Shown: positions 17,009 to 33,861 of the stretch, piece after piece
Layout of the letters: every line of letters starts with the position of its first letter
How positions within the stretch are numbered: position 1 is the stretch's first letter
Sequence record: NC_012223.2
Origin: Escherichia phage SSL-2009a
Direction: 5' to 3' (one strand)
Length of the DNA stretch: 44,899 bases
Position numbers and translations under genes: made by a program
Notes under the pieces: model-generated
Seen by the model: the letters and a program-made list of their open reading frames with translations, nothing else
What the model was told of the DNA's origin: nothing
Databases searched by the model: none

Positions 17009-17616
17009 CCACGTTTAAATTGTACGGCGTCTTAGGGCGTCGATTCGGCAAAGTGCATAAGCTGGACTGCTTCACACCGGGCGAAGGAATCACCGGCTTG
17101 TGTGTGAAGTTGCCAGGGTTACAAGACTTTTTAATGTCGGCCCACCTGGACAACATGATGTTCAAGGTGCGCAAAGGCGACCACACAATGACCGGCTATG
17201 ACGAGCTAGGCGAGTTCCACGGCAACCGCGTCGTCACCATCGCTCCGGTTATGACTGGCGCAAAAAGAGGATTGGGCCAATTGCTGGCGGGTGTCGCGAT
17301 CGTAGTGGCGTCGTTCTATACGGGCGGACTTGCTACTGCCGCTTTCGGGGCTTCGGCTGCAACCGCTGCCGCGATCGGTACGGCGACATTTTCGTTCGGG
17401 ATGTCGATGGCGCTGGGTGGCGTTATGCAATTGCTGTCGCCTCAACCGAAAGGATTGCAAACAAGGCAGGACGTGGATAACAAGGCTTCGTATGCGTTCG
17501 GGGGGCCGGTAAACACGACCGCGCAAGGCACGGCACTTGGTGTATTATGGGGCGAGCGTGAGATCGGCGGCGCTATTATTTCAGCCGGAATCGTAACCGA
17601 GGATTTGAACGAATGA
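16999..17616 (+). CDS. tail assembly protein (lambda gpI-like)
   Basis: 205 aa with glycine/alanine-rich hydrophobic central region; overlaps neighbours; position between K-like and J-like genes. Confidence 0.65.
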   Translation: MAMTTFKLYGVLGRRFGKVHKLDCFTPGEGITGLCVKLPGLQDFLMSAHLDNMMFKVRKGDHTMTGYDELGEFHGNRVVTIAPVMTGAKRGLGQLLAGVAIVVASFYTGGLATAAFGASAATAAAIGTATFSFGMSMALGGVMQLLSPQPKGLQTRQDVDNKASYAFGGPVNTTAQGTALGVLWGEREIGGAIISAGIVTEDLNE

Positions 17617-20600
17617 CGATTATCTACGACGTCACGGGCCATAAAGGCGGCGGCGGCAAACAGCACACCCCACAGGAGACGCCCGATAGCCTGCATTCGC
17701 TGGCTAAAATCCGCATCTTGCTCGCGTTGGGCGAGGGTGAATTCGAAGGCATTACGAGCGCCAGCGAATTGCGGCAGCGTGTATACCTGGACGGAACACC
17801 GATCCAGAACGCAGACCTGTCTGAAAACTTCCCCGGAGCGCGTGTGGAGTTCCGCCCCGGAACACAGCACCAGGATGTGATCCACGGATTTTCAGCGGTG
17901 GAAAGTGAGCAATCCGTTGGGGTAAAACTGGAGAACGGCACGCCGTGGGTGCGCCAGATTAACGACACCAGTTTGGACGCCGTGCGCATTCGCATCGGCA
18001 TTCCGGCCTTGTACACAAACGAAGATAATGGCGACCTGGTGGGTGGGCGCATCGACTATAAGATCGTTGTGTATACGGATAACGCCGACCCGCGTGAGTT
18101 TACCTTCGCTGCCGTTGGTAAAACAATGTCGCTATACGAGCGCGATCACCGCATCGAATTACCGCCGAACGTGAATACCGGCTGGCGCGTGGAGGTGCAC
18201 CGCATAACGGCAGACTCCACATCGGCGAAAGTGGTTAATGATATCCGGGTGCAGTCCATCACTGAGATTATCGACGCCCGCCTGCGTTACCCGCTAACCG
18301 CGCTGTTGTTTGTGGAGTTCGACGCCAAAGCGTTCCAGAACATCCCGCGCGTGTCCATCAAGTGCAAAGGCCGCAAAGTTCTAATACCGAACAACTACGA
18401 CCCGATTAATCATACTTATTCCGGGGACTGGGACGGCACGTTTAAACGCGCATGGACGGATAACCCTGCGTGGCACTGGTACGATATTTGTATTACTGAG
18501 CGCTTCGGCCTCGGTCGGCGTATCAAACCGCAAATGTTAAACCGGTACGCGCTCTACCAGATCGCGCAGCGCTGCGATCAGTTGGTCAGCGACGGCAACG
18601 GTGGTCGAGAAATCCGCTTTAAGAATGATATGTACATTCAGTCACAGACGGATGCCTGGACCGTGCTTAAGGATTTGGCTGCCATCTTCGCCGGAATGAC
18701 CTGGTGGGGCAACCAGATGTTGAATATCGTCAGTGACCAACCGGTCGCAGCAGTGTCGCACACTATCACCAACGCATCTGTTATTGATGGGCGATTCGAC
18801 TACGCATCTGGCAGCCAGAAAACTCGCTATTCCACATTCGCGGTAGCATACGGCAATCCGAAAAACCACTACGATGACGCCATCGCAACGGGCCAACGTG
18901 TTGAACTGGTACGCCGCCATAAGATTAACCGTCTTGATATTACGGCGATCGGCTGTACGCGCGAATCCGAAGCGCAACGCCGCGGGCATTGGGCGCTAAT
19001 ATCCAACCAGCTTGACCAGCAAGTTAGTTTTAAGGTGGGCATGGAAGGGTTATTCTTTATTCCTGGTAGCGTAGTCGCGATCGCGGATACAAACATTTCT
19101 GGCGGATTCGAGACTCGCGGCGGTCGCCTGTTGTCGGACCCAGGAACGCGTACCGTGCTGAACACGGACAGCGAAATCACATTCCGCCCTGGTGATAAGT
19201 TCTTGGTGCGCACCGATAGCGGAAATGTGGAGACTCGCGAGATCGCCAGCGTCAACGGCAACAAGGTCACGCTAAAAACCGCACTGGATGCCGACCCGAT
19301 TCCAGACCAACCGTTTTGCGTTGACGGCGATGATATCCAGTTGCAGAAATTCCGCATCACCGATCTGGAATATGACGACTCTACCAGCACTTTCTCGGTG
19401 CGCGGGATTGAATACAACGATAGCAAGTATGATGCCGTTGATAATGGCGCACGACTAGACCCAGGCATCTTTACGCAAGTGCCAGACGGTGTAATGAAGG
19501 GGCCGGAATCCGTTACCATCACCCCGTCGCAGATCTCATCGCAAGGCCAGCTAATCACCAACGTGGATATTGTTTTCCCGCCGGTGAAAGATGCCGTGGT
19601 GTATGAAATCCAGTGGAGGCGTACTAGCCTGCAGAATATGGAGATCCAGTGGGGTAACGACTGGGTGAATATCCCTCGCACGGCGTCGAATGGGGCGCAC
19701 ATCCCTAACGTGTTCTCCGGTAACTATCAGGCACGCGTCCGCGCAATTGGTATGGGCGAAATCTCGTCCCCGTGGGTGTCTTCCGCGATCACGCCGGTGG
19801 AAGGTCGCCTCGGTGGGCTTAACGCCCCAATCATCACCAACGCGATTTCGGGTCTGCACCAGATTCTATGGAAGTGGAACCACAACAACGCTGCGACTGA
19901 TATATCATACACCGAGCTTGAAGTGCGCAAGACGGGTGAAACGGAATGGAAATTCTTAACAAACGTCCCCTATCCTGGCGCGGAGTACGCGCAAACGTCG
20001 CTGGAGTTCGGCATATACCAGCAGTTGCGCGCCCGTGTAGCGGATAAAATCGGCAACCTGTCGGACTGGTCCGCCCCGTTCGAAGGCCAGGTGAGTGACA
20101 AAGTTGACGAGTACATGAAGGGGCTTGATGACGAGTTCTTGACTTCTGAGGATGGTAAACACTTCCAGGAAGCTATTAACACGATCCCGCAAGGCATTTA
20201 CGAATCAATGCTCACGGACGCCCAGCAGATGTTCAACGCCCGCGCCGAGTACAAAGGGATTTACGCAGAAATCAAGGTCGCATATAACGTGGCGGCAGAC
20301 GCCCACAAGGCAGTCGCGCAACTGGAAACGTTGATCGGCACTCGCCTTGACGATGCGGAAGCGGCAATCCACACGTTGCAGACAGCGCAAAGCACGCACG
20401 AGCAAGCATTCGCCCAGTATCAGCAAACTGTTGCCGCTAAGTTCGGGGAACAGGAAGCCGCCATCCAGCAGGTACAAACGGCAACGGCGGACGTGGCTGG
20501 CGCACTGGCGGAGTACAAGACCCAAGTGGCGGCACAGTTCGGGCAGCAGTCCGCCGCTATCGAGCAGAAGATGACGTCCACGTTTAACCATGCCGGTGGT

Positions 20601-21032
20601 AACGCCACATACAGCCTTAAGGCGGGCGTGACGTATAACGGGACTTACTATGATGCCGGTATGCAGCTTTCCGTCGTGGCGGAAGGCGGCGCGGTTAAAT
20701 CCCGTATAGCGTTCAAAGCGGACCAGTTCTATATCATGCACCCGTCTAACGGCACGCTGTCGTCTGCGTTTATCGTCGACGGTGGGGCGGTGTATATCGA
20801 CACAGCGCGCATCAAGGACGCGACTATTAACTTCGCGCAGATCACGGACACGCTGCAATCGAATAACTATGACGGCAACACGCGTGGTTGGCGCTTAGGG
20901 AAAGAGGGGACGTTTATCAACCTGGGAACCGGTAACGGCGGCGGGATGAAACAGACGAACACGCAAATCAGCGTTAGGGACGGAAACGGCGTGCTCCGCG
21001 TGCAGCTTGGAGAACTCACAGGTAGTTGGTAG
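17613..21032 (+). CDS. central tail fiber / host specificity protein (lambda gpJ-like)
   Basis: 1139 aa, ATGA overlap with upstream gene; size and position typical for J. Confidence 0.8.
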   Translation: MTIIYDVTGHKGGGGKQHTPQETPDSLHSLAKIRILLALGEGEFEGITSASELRQRVYLDGTPIQNADLSENFPGARVEFRPGTQHQDVIHGFSAVESEQSVGVKLENGTPWVRQINDTSLDAVRIRIGIPALYTNEDNGDLVGGRIDYKIVVYTDNADPREFTFAAVGKTMSLYERDHRIELPPNVNTGWRVEVHRITADSTSAKVVNDIRVQSITEIIDARLRYPLTALLFVEFDAKAFQNIPRVSIKCKGRKVLIPNNYDPINHTYSGDWDGTFKRAWTDNPAWHWYDICITERFGLGRRIKPQMLNRYALYQIAQRCDQLVSDGNGGREIRFKNDMYIQSQTDAWTVLKDLAAIFAGMTWWGNQMLNIVSDQPVAAVSHTITNASVIDGRFDYASGSQKTRYSTFAVAYGNPKNHYDDAIATGQRVELVRRHKINRLDITAIGCTRESEAQRRGHWALISNQLDQQVSFKVGMEGLFFIPGSVVAIADTNISGGFETRGGRLLSDPGTRTVLNTDSEITFRPGDKFLVRTDSGNVETREIASVNGNKVTLKTALDADPIPDQPFCVDGDDIQLQKFRITDLEYDDSTSTFSVRGIEYNDSKYDAVDNGARLDPGIFTQVPDGVMKGPESVTITPSQISSQGQLITNVDIVFPPVKDAVVYEIQWRRTSLQNMEIQWGNDWVNIPRTASNGAHIPNVFSGNYQARVRAIGMGEISSPWVSSAITPVEGRLGGLNAPIITNAISGLHQILWKWNHNNAATDISYTELEVRKTGETEWKFLTNVPYPGAEYAQTSLEFGIYQQLRARVADKIGNLSDWSAPFEGQVSDKVDEYMKGLDDEFLTSEDGKHFQEAINTIPQGIYESMLTDAQQMFNARAEYKGIYAEIKVAYNVAADAHKAVAQLETLIGTRLDDAEAAIHTLQTAQSTHEQAFAQYQQTVAAKFGEQEAAIQQVQTATADVAGALAEYKTQVAAQFGQQSAAIEQKMTSTFNHAGGNATYSLKAGVTYNGTYYDAGMQLSVVAEGGAVKSRIAFKADQFYIMHPSNGTLSSAFIVDGGAVYIDTARIKDATINFAQITDTLQSNNYDGNTRGWRLGKEGTFINLGTGNGGGMKQTNTQISVRDGNGVLRVQLGELTGSW

Positions 21033-21036
21033 CATA

Positions 21037-21058
21037 GGGGCTTCGGCCCCATTCTTTT
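21037..21058 (+). terminator. rho-independent terminator after J-like gene
   Basis: GGGGC-ttcg-GCCCC followed by ATTCTTTT. Confidence 0.6.
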
Positions 21059-21069
21059 GGAGGTATAGC

Positions 21070-21372
21070 ATGGCTTTCGGTGTCGCAACATGGGACGCGC
21101 AAGGGCGACCAAACAACTACGGGATCAAGCCCGTTTCGGTTGTAGGAATTATTAAACTGGCACAAGGTCAAACATCGGGGGCGTGGGCGTTCGATATTCC
21201 TTCAGGTATGAAAGTAGGTTTTGCGGTTACGCTGGACGTAGGCGGCACTACGGTCGGTCGGGCGATCCGTGCCAGCGGGAACACGATAACAGTATCTGCG
21301 GCAAACAGCGTCGGTATTGGAAACTACCCGGCGTCAGAATGTGAAGTAGTAGTTTTTGTGGAGAAAGCGTAA
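21070..21372 (+). CDS. hypothetical tail-associated protein
   Basis: 100 aa from ATG 21070 (SD GGAGG 6 nt upstream); located between J and tail fiber genes. Confidence 0.45.
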   Translation: MAFGVATWDAQGRPNNYGIKPVSVVGIIKLAQGQTSGAWAFDIPSGMKVGFAVTLDVGGTTVGRAIRASGNTITVSAANSVGIGNYPASECEVVVFVEKA

Positions 21373-21374
21373 AA

Positions 21375-22046
21375 ATGGCAAACTTCGGCGCGTTAATCGA
21401 TAACAACAACGGCAACCCATTCGTAACGCCAAACTCAACGCCGTTCGTCCTCTACGCTAAGGTGTCGGCAAATTCAGTGGACGCCGGTGCTGATTATAAA
21501 ACAGCAAGCGGGGGCGTGGATATTCCAGCGAACTATCCGGCGATGGTGTTTATGCGGTCAAATAACCGTTGCGTCCTGGCGGCGTCACGATCAGGTAACC
21601 GGATTATATTTAGCGGAAGCATTCAGGGGCAGAATAACCCACATTTTACCGTCACGGCGTACATATTCGCGCGATTCCCGCAACCGCTGCCGAGATGGGG
21701 GTTTGCTATTTGGGACGCCAGCGGGACTTGCATACTAACCAACGAGAGCAAGGTACTCACCGATTTAGTCACGGTTGGCAGCTTTGGCAATAACGGCGGC
21801 ATCAACATAGACCAGACGCTGCCGGGTAAGTACGCGGTATCACCTATGTTAATGGGCGCTACTCTGATCCAGATCTTTGTACAGGGGCAGCCGCTGATTA
21901 TCCAGATCACGGCGGGGGCAGGGGCTTACGACAACGGAAGCGGAACACGGATTAACGCCGTGGCAACACAAGCGGGGTCTGGTAGCGTCGCGGGGTATCA
22001 AAACACTGGGGTTGCTTTGACAGCGATTAACGTGGATGGAATATGA
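21375..22046 (+). CDS. hypothetical tail-associated protein
   Basis: 223 aa ORF, start 3 nt after previous stop; Gly/Asn-rich; between J and tail fiber. Confidence 0.5.
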   Translation: MANFGALIDNNNGNPFVTPNSTPFVLYAKVSANSVDAGADYKTASGGVDIPANYPAMVFMRSNNRCVLAASRSGNRIIFSGSIQGQNNPHFTVTAYIFARFPQPLPRWGFAIWDASGTCILTNESKVLTDLVTVGSFGNNGGINIDQTLPGKYAVSPMLMGATLIQIFVQGQPLIIQITAGAGAYDNGSGTRINAVATQAGSGSVAGYQNTGVALTAINVDGI

Positions 22047-22047
22047 A

Positions 22048-22063
22048 AGCCCCTTCCGGGGCT
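22048..22063. terminator. hairpin between convergent genes (AGCCCC-ttcc-GGGGCT)
   Basis: Perfect 6-bp stem between the end of 21375-22046 (+) and the stop of the lipoprotein gene (-); T-runs are weak on both sides. Confidence 0.4.
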
Positions 22064-22281
22064 TATTCGCAGGTGGTGCTTTTGAAGTGGTCGACCGACA
22101 CATACTGGAAGTTGAACGGGTAGCCCGCCCGCAACATTTTATGCCCGCTAAAATCGGCAACACCGAACACCGGGACCGAGTATTCCATGCCGCTATTAAC
22201 ATATGTCGCGTCGCAGACTTTAGTCGGCATGTTGGCACAACCCGACAAAAGAACCGCACAAATCATAATTAAAGTTTTCAT
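22063..22281 (-). CDS. lipoprotein, candidate receptor-blocking superinfection-exclusion protein (Cor/Llp-like by context)
   Basis: 72 aa from ATG 22281 (SD AGGGGA); signal peptide with lipobox LLSGC; antisense gene directly upstream of the tail fiber gene. Confidence 0.55.
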   Translation of the reverse strand: MKTLIMICAVLLSGCANMPTKVCDATYVNSGMEYSVPVFGVADFSGHKMLRAGYPFNFQYVSVDHFKSTTCE

Positions 22282-22312
22282 GGTATCATCCCCTATATTT
22301 GGTTGAGTTTTA

Positions 22313-22345
22313 GTATTACACCGCTCGACCAGGATTGCAACCAAT
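22313..22345 (-). promoter_or_regulatory. candidate sigma70-type promoter for the lipoprotein gene (extended -35 ATTGGTTGCAAT, -10 TAATAC)
   Basis: On the minus strand: ATTGG-TTGCAA, 16 nt spacer, TAATAC; TTGCAA at 22335-22340, -10 at 22313-22318. Confidence 0.45.
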
Positions 22346-22361
22346 TTATGAGGATTCAGCT

Positions 22362-23978
22362 ATGGCAGCGGGTACACTATCCGTAACGAATAACAGCAAG
22401 GCGGTTGTCGGGGTAGGCACGACGTTTACCGCGTTTAAAGCTGGCGACTTCTTAACGCTGGTGGTAGGACAAGTCCCCTACACCGTGGCAATCGCGTCCA
22501 TTGAAAGCGCAACCGCGCTCACGCTGGTGTTACCGTTCGACGGACCCACGGCCACCGGCCTTGCCTGGGATGGCGTTGCGCGCGATACCATGTCACTGGC
22601 GACGATGGGCGTAACAGTCCAGGCACAGAAAGCATTGCGCTTGATGATTGCGGATGAAAACAACTGGCGTGCAATCTTCGGCGACGCTGAAGAGATCACC
22701 GTTACGCTGCCCAACGGGCAAGTTATGCAGGGTATGTCATGGGGCTACCTGTCGCAATTGATGAAGCAGATCGACCCCGTTGAAATGCGCAACCTACAAC
22801 AACAAGCCGCCGCGTCTGAAGCAGCAGCGCAAGGATTTCGCAATGAGGCCGAAGGCTTCAAGAACGATGCCAATACCATCAAGACGCAGACCAACCAAAT
22901 CAAGGCCGATACGCAGGCGGTCCACGACGCCACCAACACCATCAAGACGCAGACGAATCAGATTAAGGCCGATACGCAAGCCATCAAGGACCAGACGAAC
23001 CAGATCAAGACGGATACCGGCATTATTCGGGACCAAGCCAATACGGCGAAGACTGACGCGCAAGCCGCCAGAGATGCCGCGAAAGGGTATCGGGATGAAG
23101 CCGAAGACTTCAAAAACGCGGTCAACCCTACGCAATTCATGAAGACGTCTCAGAACCTGGCAGACGTAGCAAATCAATCAGCGGCACGCTCTAATCTTGG
23201 TCTTGGGTCGGTAGCTACGGAGAACACCGTTCCGATCGAGAAAGGAGGAACCGCCGCGACAACGGCAGCGGCGGCACGCTCTAATTTCGGGTTGGGCGAA
23301 AACAATAACGTAAAACTTGGTACGTTGCGCCTAAACGGTGGTGAATCGCTAGTCTTCAATGATGTCGAAAGAAACGGCTTAGCACTATCAAACGTCTCAT
23401 ATGGGATAGATAGTTGGGTAGGCTTCACCATGCACAAATGGTACGCCGACTGGACCCGCGCAGGAATTGTGCGTGCGGGGGACACCCACCTGTCAGACTA
23501 CCGCGTCCACGTGTGGAAAGATGGTATGACTGAATCGCTATTCCGCTTCCTACCGGACGGCAGGCTTATTAGTGGTAACAGCGGCAACCCGTCGGTTAAC
23601 GAGTTCCAGAAAGCGGCGCTATCGGACCGCGACCTTAAAAAAGAAATCAAATACACGGACGGCGAGGAAAGCTACAACCGCGTTCGCCAGTGGCTTCCGG
23701 CGATGTTCAAGTATAAGGAGTCGGACGTACAGCGATACGGCCTTATCGCGCAGGATCTGGCAAGGATTGACCCGGAATACGTGCATTTGCTGCCGGGTTA
23801 CGCCATTTATGAGGACGTCAAGGGGGTCGACGAGGAAGGGAATGAGGTTGTAGTCGACCGCAAGGAGATCGGGTATACCGACGATGTGCTGTCTTTGGAT
23901 AGTAACGTGCTGTTGATGGACCTGTGTGCCGCCTTCGTCCACCTGTTGCATAAAGTGGAGAAGCTGGAAGGTAAATAA
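22362..23978 (+). CDS. tail fiber protein with internal 21-residue repeats and C-terminal chaperone-like domain
   Basis: 538 aa from ATG 22362 (SD GAGGA); tandem TIKTQTNQIKADTQA repeats; C-terminal region (DRDLKKEIKYTDGEESY...GLIAQDLARIDPEYV) resembles the intramolecular chaperone of S74-type fibers (by recollection). Confidence 0.7.
   Translation: MAAGTLSVTNNSKAVVGVGTTFTAFKAGDFLTLVVGQVPYTVAIASIESATALTLVLPFDGPTATGLAWDGVARDTMSLATMGVTVQAQKALRLMIADENNWRAIFGDAEEITVTLPNGQVMQGMSWGYLSQLMKQIDPVEMRNLQQQAAASEAAAQGFRNEAEGFKNDANTIKTQTNQIKADTQAVHDATNTIKTQTNQIKADTQAIKDQTNQIKTDTGIIRDQANTAKTDAQAARDAAKGYRDEAEDFKNAVNPTQFMKTSQNLADVANQSAARSNLGLGSVATENTVPIEKGGTAATTAAAARSNFGLGENNNVKLGTLRLNGGESLVFNDVERNGLALSNVSYGIDSWVGFTMHKWYADWTRAGIVRAGDTHLSDYRVHVWKDGMTESLFRFLPDGRLISGNSGNPSVNEFQKAALSDRDLKKEIKYTDGEESYNRVRQWLPAMFKYKESDVQRYGLIAQDLARIDPEYVHLLPGYAIYEDVKGVDEEGNEVVVDRKEIGYTDDVLSLDSNVLLMDLCAAFVHLLHKVEKLEGK
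22836..23120 (+). repeat. tandem 63-bp coding repeats within the tail fiber gene
   Basis: accatcaagacgcagac...aaggccgatacgca repeated at 22875 and 22938 with a third degenerate copy; flanked by repeated FKN(D/A) segments. Confidence 0.6.
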
Positions 23979-23984
23979 GGAGAA

Positions 23985-24008
23985 GGGGCCGTGCGGCCCC
24001 TTTTTTAG
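23985..24008 (+). terminator. rho-independent terminator after tail fiber gene
   Basis: GGGGCC-gtgc-GGCCCC followed by TTTTTT; marks the convergent junction with the minus-strand operon. Confidence 0.7.
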
Positions 24009-24580
24009 TTTGAGTTTTCCCAGTCCATTTTGCGCCGCACCAGCGGGCTTTCGTAGTATTCTTTACCGTCCACTTCCACTAAAGGCCAATCGTTAACAAT
24101 CACGTATGGCTCCGCGACATCTTCAATCACGCCGCGCGCGCTATGTTGTCCGAACGATACGCCCACCAGGATAACACCGGCAACGCGACGGGTAAGGTAT
24201 TCGCGAGCGCAACGTGCCTCAACCAGTCCGCGACGGATGCCGCTGGTAGCTTTGACTTCGTAGGTCCAGACGGCATCAATCATATGTTCGCGGAAGTCGG
24301 GACCGGATTTTACCTTGCGCTTGCCAACCATGATAATATCGCCGCGGTCGATAGTGTTAGCGCTAAACAGGCCGGTACGCATTAGCAAACCTTGCGGGAT
24401 ACAGCTACGCCCGCCCGCCTGCCCTTCGAGGTACATGCCTGCAAACATTTCGCCCAGCACACCGACGAGTCTGCTTTGCTTGCACGCGTCAGACTTGTAT
24501 CGCCACTGTTCAAACTCGATGCTTGCAATCATCGCCGCCAGGTGGAATTGTTTACCGGTTATTTCATATTCGCCGTACAT
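24005..24580 (-). CDS. hypothetical protein, possible PD-(D/E)xK-type nuclease
   Basis: 191 aa, SD GAGGGA; D...EVK arrangement (GDIIMVG ... TYEVKA) weakly suggestive of a restriction-endonuclease-like fold; last gene of the leftward operon. Confidence 0.45.
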   Translation of the reverse strand: MYGEYEITGKQFHLAAMIASIEFEQWRYKSDACKQSRLVGVLGEMFAGMYLEGQAGGRSCIPQGLLMRTGLFSANTIDRGDIIMVGKRKVKSGPDFREHMIDAVWTYEVKATSGIRRGLVEARCAREYLTRRVAGVILVGVSFGQHSARGVIEDVAEPYVIVNDWPLVEVDGKEYYESPLVRRKMDWENSN

Positions 24581-33025: not shown

Positions 33026-33805
33026 TTAACGGCGGCGACGTTTACGTGGCGCTTCGTCTTCGTCGTCGTCCTCATCTTCGTCATCGCGTGGCTTACGACG
33101 TTTACGAGGTTTTTCATCTTCGTCGTCTTCGTCATCGCGGCGCTTGGACTTTTTGGACTTGCGCGGCTTGTCGTCTTCGTCATCGTCATCACGACGTTTT
33201 GACTTTTTGGACTTGCGCGGGCTTTCATCTTCGTCATCGTTGTCCAGGTCTTCGTCTGAGCACGAAGATCCGCCACCGCCGAAGGCTTCGCCGTCATCAC
33301 GGAAGCGCAGACCCAAAAGACCAGCACCGAGTCCCTTGCCGTTGGTATTGTTCCACGCCCAGATATCGAGGGACACGTTGCAATAACAACCGGAGTAGAT
33401 CTCCTGGCCTTCGATCTCGTCGCCTTCTACGGTCAGACCTTGTTCAGTCTGCTTCTCGCCGAGTGACGTTTGAATGATCGGCTGCTTGAACGATTTGGCG
33501 TTGATGTACAACATGCCTTCGAATTCTTCGGTTACTTCGTCGCGCTCGTCACCGTCGCGAACTGCGCATTCCTTAGAATCCTGGGCGTAGTGGCGGTCCA
33601 TCCACTTATCGGCATTCTTCTCGGATTTCAGCTTGTCGGTGAGCACTGCGCGCGCTGCCGCTTCCACTTTGTCCACCTGCGGATCTTCTTTATCCAGAAG
33701 AATCACGGCACGGTATGCCGGTTTTTGTCCATCCTGTTTAGGGGTATCACGTTCCCAAATTTTCAGGAAACATACGCGCACTTTTTTCAGGTTGACTTTA
33801 GCCAT
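33026..33805 (-). CDS. single-stranded DNA-binding protein candidate (T7 gp2.5-like) with repetitive mixed-charge C-terminal tail
   Basis: 259 aa from ATG 33805 (SD AGGAA); N-terminus MAKVNLKKVRVCF resembles gp2.5-like SSBs (by recollection); C-terminal 70 residues are tandem D/E-rich and KPRKSKKSKRR-type repeats. Confidence 0.5.
   Translation of the reverse strand: MAKVNLKKVRVCFLKIWERDTPKQDGQKPAYRAVILLDKEDPQVDKVEAAARAVLTDKLKSEKNADKWMDRHYAQDSKECAVRDGDERDEVTEEFEGMLYINAKSFKQPIIQTSLGEKQTEQGLTVEGDEIEGQEIYSGCYCNVSLDIWAWNNTNGKGLGAGLLGLRFRDDGEAFGGGGSSCSDEDLDNDDEDESPRKSKKSKRRDDDDEDDKPRKSKKSKRRDDEDDEDEKPRKRRKPRDDEDEDDDEDEAPRKRRRR
33030..33245 (-). repeat. tandem coding repeats (about 55-bp period) in the SSB C-terminal tail
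   Basis: ttggactttttggacttgcgcgg repeated at 33144-33166 and 33198-33220 with flanking gtc/ttc triplet runs. Confidence 0.55.
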
Positions 33806-33861
33806 TTTCCAATTCCTCATTTTCACATGTATCGGGGTTATTGTGAGCCACCCCGTTCGGC

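Follow-up and report, generated by a model that had tools for sequence, protein, structure and literature searches.

A lateral tail fiber of Escherichia phage SSL-2009a with a heptad-built shaft and a C-terminal S74-type chaperone domain

What kind of fiber is encoded at positions 22362-23978 (plus strand) of the 44,899 bp analysed here, how might its protein mature, and how freely does its repeat array change in length? The analysed stretch (the window) is the whole genome of a small siphophage, Escherichia phage SSL-2009a of the genus Dhillonvirus; its first 25 kb are 91-94% identical to Dhillonvirus genomes, with YD-2008.s as the closest (94.4%). A first-pass annotation, made from the letters alone, had placed a tail fiber at this locus, and its coordinates were exact, as they enclose one complete open reading frame (ORF), stop codon included, with a product of 538 amino acids (aa) and a computed precursor mass of 58.6 kDa. 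The gene encodes the lateral (side) tail fiber of SSL-2009a. PHROGs family phrog_1980 ('tail fiber protein') matches aa 1-536 with an E-value of 1.9e-130, and a database comparison showed 100% identity to the entry "tail fiber protein" of Escherichia phage SSL-2009a, so that our results concern a deposited and annotated gene of a known phage. The fiber is thus already known: the Peptidase_S74 family (PF13884) is listed in the database for the identical protein, and the same layout has been published for Dhillonvirus side fibers. A megablast search with the fiber gene matched 155 phage records, nearly all from E. coli phages, several of the listed ones being classed as Dhillonvirus.

Translation starts at ATG 22362, with a Shine-Dalgarno-like GAGGA, read from the sequence, at 22350..22354 (+) and a spacer of 7 nucleotides (nt). 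An upstream in-frame TTG (22335) was considered as a start and rejected, because the annotated orthologs in relatives all begin at the equivalent of ATG 22362, with MAAGTLSV; the position of GAGGA, 7 nt before this ATG, speaks for the same choice.

From the N-terminus, the protein is composed of an anchor (aa 1-148), a coiled-coil shaft (aa 149-253), a linker (aa 254-316), a distal tip (aa 317-420) and an S74 chaperone domain (aa 421-538). Besides this domain order, the analysis documents the S74 match with its catalytic dyad, the heptad array of the shaft and the variation of repeat number among relatives. The fiber is most likely homotrimeric; three-stranded oligomers have been published for T5 pb1 (PMC4690869) and modelled for Gp29 of the Dhillonvirus RuthEpting (PMC11990801). 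The anchor (22362..22805, +), for virion attachment, was delimited by genus-wide conservation and profile matches: it is 80-97% identical in relatives, whereas the C-termini diverge. A profile of the fiber family matched the first ~180 residues of the solved 'Depolymerase' chains 7vyv/7vz3/7lzj (E-value about 1e-19), and in the same search of solved structures the anchor also matched aa 1-72 of 23gd_B, 'Distal tail protein gp20'. Homology across these chains fits an attachment module common to fibers and tailspikes of different phages.

The C-terminal domain bears most directly on maturation. It occupies the last 118 residues (aa 421-538; 23622..23975, +; 13.7 kDa), directly after the tip, and was assigned from Pfam, the dyad and the fold. 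The first-pass annotation had likened this region to the autocleaving intramolecular chaperones of S74-type fibers and proposed a domain search, in which Peptidase_S74 was indeed detected: PF13884 scored 35.4 bits (E-value 1.3e-8) over aa 421-474, covering profile positions 1-57 of 58, at a curated cut-off of 22 bits. Three further fiber alleles scored 36-38 bits against the same family. Profile position 1 falls on aa 421, in the sequence S421-D-R-D-L-K426, which places the predicted scissile Ser421 at codon 23622-23624 (+) and, by the Ser-x4-Lys spacing, Lys426 at codon 23637-23639 (+). This spacing equals that of Ser1264/Lys1269 in T5 pb1, where the scissile Ser1264 is activated by Lys1269 and the S1264A exchange stops cleavage (PMC4690869). 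S421, D422 and K426 are invariant in an alignment of seven fibers that includes the otherwise unrelated tip of YD-2008.s, and across 55 relatives S421 and K426 reach at least 90% conservation. The seven-fiber alignment also shows charged residues that are conserved ahead of the dyad (LFRFLPDGR segment; D399 invariant).

The predicted structure points the same way. In the AlphaFold2 (AF2) monomer model, the domain has a fold like that of solved chaperone domains and ends in a helix (aa 514-537) with a predicted local distance difference test score (pLDDT) of 82-92. A Foldseek search of the model against the Protein Data Bank returned as its top match 4uw8, the tip and chaperone of T5 pb1 (218 columns, E-value 2.8e-5), followed by the ICA domain of MyRF (7dc3; E-value 1.9e-4, TM-score of 0.61 relative to the target, aa ~424-538). 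The family profile matched 7dc3 over the same residues with an E-value of 8.3e-7.

The tip (23310..23621, +), a putative receptor-binding domain, was delimited by AF2 strands, Foldseek and profile matches. It is rich in beta-structure, with strands predicted over aa 338-415 (pLDDT 70-81). Tip and chaperone together align with the lateral fiber of T5_ev212 over 212 residues at 43% identity, and the tip alone is 31-46% identical to fibers of T5-like phages (Markadamsvirinae); the family profile matched the L-shaped fiber (LtfA) of DT57C, 8hqz_d, with an E-value of 3.1e-32. As an observation in its own right, the T5_ev212 fiber (L007:2407-5175, 922 aa) carries the tip module twice, at residues 596-677 (32% identity) and from 699 onward (43%), each compared with aa ~321-401 of the SSL-2009a fiber, so that the tip domain may have been duplicated within that protein.

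From these features we infer a maturation pathway modelled on T5 pb1 and the K1F endosialidase, and we consider it very probable that SSL-2009a possesses a side fiber of this kind. Three chains would assemble, and their C-terminal S74 domains would trimerise and template the folding of an interdigitated tip. After the tip has folded, Ser421 would be activated by Lys426 and cleave the Leu420-Ser421 bond, converting the 58.6-kDa precursor into a mature chain of 44.9 kDa and a departing chaperone of 13.7 kDa, whereby the distal binding surface would become exposed. The anchor would hold the mature fiber on the tail tip, with the coiled coil and the linker extending it. The tip would then bind a surface glycan and so help the phage through the O-antigen layer, before the J-like central fiber and small proteins encoded downstream of its gene engage the terminal outer-membrane receptor. 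That the tip binds a surface glycan is probable, and O-antigen is its most likely ligand because of the precedent of T5 (PMC4690869) and of the Dhillonvirus phenotypes described in the BASEL papers. The proposal of the first-pass annotation that this fiber is distinct from a J-like central fiber was borne out, since a separate J-like gene lies at 17613-21032, with matches to Pfam FNIII-A_GpJ, Phage-tail_3 and Phage_Tail_Tip.

The shaft (22806..23120, +) consists of 15 uninterrupted heptads, as deduced from the heptad layout, the AF2 helix and the profile. At position 1 the heptads have A or T throughout, and at position 4 they have I, F, V, Y or A, with S occurring once. AF2 predicts aa 139-253 as a single helix (pLDDT 88-94 in its centre), and as a full helix the shaft would have a computed length of about 15.6 nm. 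The family profile matches the T7 gp17 fiber over positions 144-402 (E-value 8.5e-8). Several Pfam coiled-coil families (CC149, COG6_N and others) also matched the fiber, all below their cut-offs; they were rejected as homologues, as such matches reflect heptad composition and not homology. The 21-residue unit noted in the first-pass annotation equals three heptads within this unbroken array, in agreement with its reading as part of a coiled-coil shaft.

At the DNA level, Tandem Repeats Finder reported a repeat at 22870-23012 with a period of 63, 2.3 copies and a score of 160. A second search, with find_repeats, gave two copies: copy 1 (22870..22932, +; in frame from 22872) encodes NTIKTQTNQIKADTQAVHDAT and copy 2 (22933..22995, +) encodes NTIKTQTNQIKADTQAIKDQT, with a partial third copy extending to 23012. 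The copies had been described as near-identical, which suits the peptides better than the DNA: the 21-residue units match at 18/21 positions, but at the nucleotide level only 50 of 63 positions agree (79%), 8 codons differ synonymously, and no shared run exceeds 17 nt.

Variation of repeat number was followed in 55 relatives, as the first-pass annotation had proposed, by splitting their proteins at conserved anchor motifs and measuring shaft and linker. The shaft segment comprises 31, 73, 94, 101, 108 or 115 residues, values that are all equal modulo 7, so that the shafts differ by whole heptads only; in 47 of the 55 it has 115 residues, as in SSL-2009a. Individual cases reveal how such changes come about. 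The fiber of CHD5UKE2 carries three 21-residue units, two of which are identical in DNA (63/63), and because of this identity its extra 63-bp unit indicates a recent duplication. The fiber of mckay lacks 12 heptads, with the deletion falling between the similar heptads AEGFKND and AEDFKNA, while SM_S22 also has 15 heptads, in a different order. Judged from these comparisons, change of length by repeat recombination does happen in the fiber family, always with the heptad register kept, and the usual length is strongly conserved. The idea that the shaft can vary in length by recombination thus holds for the family at large, on account of the steps of seven residues, the duplication in CHD5UKE2 and the loss in mckay, although 47 of the 55 share a single length. 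Unit 1 of SSL-2009a is identical to unit 1 of YD-2008.s at 61/63 positions, but to its own unit 2 at only 49/63. By this comparison the two SSL-2009a units are old and diverged, and since most relatives keep one length, the array is not hypervariable. Concerted evolution of the two 63-bp copies, or frequent recombination between them, was likewise considered, and was rejected because of the 8 synonymous differences and the grouping of units by position across phages.

A second, longer repeat, absent from the first-pass annotation, is found in the linker, which contains one full and one partial 30-residue "AARSNLGLG" unit. The full unit, AARSNLGLGSVATENTVPIEKGGTAATTAA (aa 274-303; 23181..23270, +), was recognised as a direct repeat with 90-nt spacing, and the start of the second, AARSNFGLGE (aa 304-313; 23271..23300, +), by the direct repeat and the alignment of relatives. 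In relatives with the same tip, the linker measures 14, 44, 74 or 104 residues, corresponding to 1 to 4 NLGLG units, with four in JL1. Total fiber lengths among relatives with this tip are 424, 466, 487, 494, 508, 524, 531, 538, 568 and 598 aa. Repeats of the NLGLG motif also occur in two solved fibers, 9zd7 and that of phage SU10 (7z47).

Could the 63-bp repeat have arisen by convergence, coiled-coil constraints producing low-complexity heptads of similar sequence in the absence of any true duplication? The entire shaft is built of similar xxxIKxD-type heptads, and DNA copies that differ at about a fifth of their positions would suit such an origin. Against it stands a codon-shuffle control: the best adjacent 63-nt identity in the gene is 50/63, about 12 standard deviations above the mean of 27.1 (standard deviation 1.9, maximum 37) in 300 codon shuffles. 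Furthermore, a 16-residue peptide, NTIKTQTNQIKADTQA, occurs in identical form at aa 171 and again at aa 192, the units of different phages cluster according to their position (as in the match of unit 1 between the window and YD-2008.s), and the additional identical unit of CHD5UKE2 shows that 63-bp duplication occurs in this array. We therefore regard convergence as extremely improbable; the tandem repeat is real and well beyond chance.

The scenario of a self-cleaving, glycan-binding side fiber has to be weighed against several observations that count against it. Cleavage, trimer state and ligand are transferred by homology, like the accessory role, from T5 pb1 and from published Dhillonvirus phenotypes. 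The AF2 model covers a single chain and is of moderate quality (mean pLDDT 67.9, predicted template modelling score 0.28), and is poor for the N-terminal domain (pLDDT 32-72) and for aa 315-347. A single-sequence search of solved structures, with the full protein and with its C-terminal 133 aa, reached neither T5 pb1 nor the K1F endosialidase; it yielded only the fiber of DT57C (E-value 1.7e-5). It was the fold search that connected the protein with T5 pb1, and the family profile made the DT57C match stronger and brought in the chaperone domain of MyRF. Counterparts of T5 Asp1239 and of Arg1250 from the neighbouring chain could not be assigned in the tip, which is only distantly related to that of pb1. 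Lastly, the hosts of phages with this tip allele are mixed, including O157:H7, K-12, Shigella and others. The lack of assignable counterparts for the two auxiliary catalytic residues, and a cleavage predicted from homology, would also suit an S74-like domain that serves folding and trimerisation and is retained in the virion, forming the distal end of an unprocessed fiber. Strict retention of the Ser-x4-Lys dyad across divergent alleles would be unexpected if cleavage had been lost, and the uncleaved form of T5 pb1 does not compete for adsorption (PMC4690869), suggesting that the chaperone masks the binding site; we hold a retained chaperone to be improbable. The same applies to the possibility that the protein is the phage's principal receptor-binding protein and essential, or else a tailspike with enzymatic activity (depolymerase), and not an accessory side fiber, which would agree with several database records that call it 'tail tip protein' and with the homology of the N-terminal domain to the 'Depolymerase' chains 7vyv/7lzj. 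That match, however, is confined to the anchor domain; Pfam and PHROGs searches of the 538-aa protein revealed no enzyme domain, and the tip comprises just about 104 residues. The genome moreover has a distinct J-like central fiber, followed by variable ORFs, and a Cor-like gene; published work on Dhillonvirus places terminal porin recognition in the module that immediately follows the J homolog and regards the binding of O-antigen by lateral fibers as facultative (BASEL papers; PMC11990801). An essential receptor-binding protein or depolymerase is in our judgement a rather remote prospect, and the processed side fiber remains the preferred interpretation.

The tip module is shared with other phage groups. 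Residues 313-419 are 73-92% identical in other Dhillonvirus members, in the T1-like phages SH6 and herni and in the lambdoid phages mEp021 and mEp515. YD-2008.s, the nearest whole genome, shares only the first 720 nt of the fiber gene, at 94% identity, and continues beyond aa ~240 into an unrelated, longer tip; other relatives align up to nt 746-806. Because the alignments of relatives stop at nt 720-806, exchange points cluster, by this measure, where the shaft ends and within the NLGLG linker. Many phages with the present tip allele were isolated on O157:H7 or Shiga toxin-producing E. coli, namely JL1, UAE_MI-01, UDS3lw, the 'bov' phages and ST-T-K, and a specificity of this allele for the O157 O-antigen is possible. 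It was kept as a mere lead, as the same tip, at 73-92% identity, is found in phages isolated on K-12 and on Shigella, and rough hosts need no fiber.

The surroundings of the gene are conserved in order. The J-like gene, a variable module downstream of it, the fiber gene and a convergent gene of 576 nt follow each other in JL1, SM_S22, mckay, CHD5UKE2 and YD-2008.s as they do here. Two small ORFs and, on the minus strand, a Cor-like superinfection exclusion gene separate the J-like gene from the fiber gene. The small ORFs (21007-22046, +), directly after the J-like gene, match phrog_557 ('outer membrane protein') and phrog_425 ('membrane associated protein'); for the former, the true start is probably ATG 21070, giving 303 nt as in relatives, because the phrog_557 match begins at residue 22 of the listed ORF. 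The Cor-like gene was listed at 22063-22344 (-; phrog_1119, E-value 1.2e-27), and its real extent is likely 22063-22281 (219 nt), in line with the annotation of mckay and YD-2008.s, because the phrog_1119 match sets in at residue 22, as does a lipoprotein-like start, MKTLIMICAVLLSGC. JL1, CHD5UKE2 and mEp021 have a different pair of minus-strand genes in its place. Directly after the fiber gene, the convergent gene at 24005-24580 (-) encodes a protein of 191 aa that matches phrog_10558, a family of unknown function, with an E-value of 3.6e-119. A GC-rich hairpin with a T-run, terminator-like on both strands, directly follows the fiber stop codon (23979..24006) and is common to both genes; it was taken from a consensus scan in which the count of such hairpins in the region was not above shuffle expectation. 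Elsewhere in the window, a 54-bp tandem repeat (33123-33240, 2.2 copies, 87% matches) within the ORF at 33026-33826 (-) encodes an alternating acidic/basic C-terminal tail (…DDEDESPRKSKKSKRRDDDDEDDKPRKSKKSKRR…) of a 266-aa protein.

The chaperone of the K1F endosialidase is the founding member of MEROPS S74 and Pfam PF13884, the family for which the SSL-2009a domain scores above threshold. The K1F protein itself is an enzymatic tailspike with a sialidase beta-propeller, in contrast to the SSL-2009a fiber, in which Pfam and PHROGs gave no enzyme domain. MyRF is a membrane-bound transcription factor whose ICA domain is a eukaryotic homologue of the phage chaperone, and the two proteins have the autoprocessing module alone in common. 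T7 gp17 resembles the fiber in having an N-terminal anchor and, after it, a trimeric coiled-coil shaft, the trimer being predicted in SSL-2009a; its tip is a different domain, and it has no S74 chaperone. In T5 pb1 and the L-shaped fibers of DT57C, a beta-rich tip likewise precedes an S74 chaperone with a Ser-x4-Lys dyad. T5 pb1 is a protein of 1396 residues with a long, elaborate shaft that binds oligo-mannose (PMC4690869), whereas the SSL-2009a fiber is 538 residues long, with a simple coiled-coil shaft and a far smaller tip. Autoproteolysis by a Ser/Lys pair has also been proposed for the K1F endosialidase, as summarised in the T5 paper (PMC4690869).

The closest counterparts are the lateral fibers of other Dhillonvirus members, which agree with that of SSL-2009a in gene position, anchor and coiled coil; tip allele, heptad number and number of NLGLG units vary between members. 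RuthEpting (Bas85) Gp29 has been described with an elongated N-terminal coiled coil, a T5-like receptor-binding tip and a C-terminal intramolecular chaperone, as one of the lateral fibers for crossing the O-antigen (PMC11990801, the 2025 BASEL paper), and the fiber of JLBYU60 likewise with a coiled coil, a T5-like tip and a C-terminal intramolecular chaperone (another 2025 paper). Over aa 1-288, the RuthEpting fiber is 82.6% identical to that of SSL-2009a.

As a discovery the present results carry little weight, and what they add is descriptive only: shaft lengths quantised in heptads, a second repeat of 30 residues, and the spread of a tip allele across phage families. The practical value of dissecting the fiber is modest and lies in boundaries for retargeting, as the module borders and the natural breaks near aa 240-290 mark where tips could be swapped. 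More speculatively, and with considerable doubt, the reach of the fiber may be tuned stepwise by two independent modules, 7-residue heptads (often as 21-residue units) and 30-residue NLGLG units, with stabilising selection for 15 heptads and with a tip allele that travels between phage groups and is maybe O-antigen-specific, such as for O157. The changes of length by heptads only illustrate how a coiled-coil shaft can be lengthened or shortened without loss of register.

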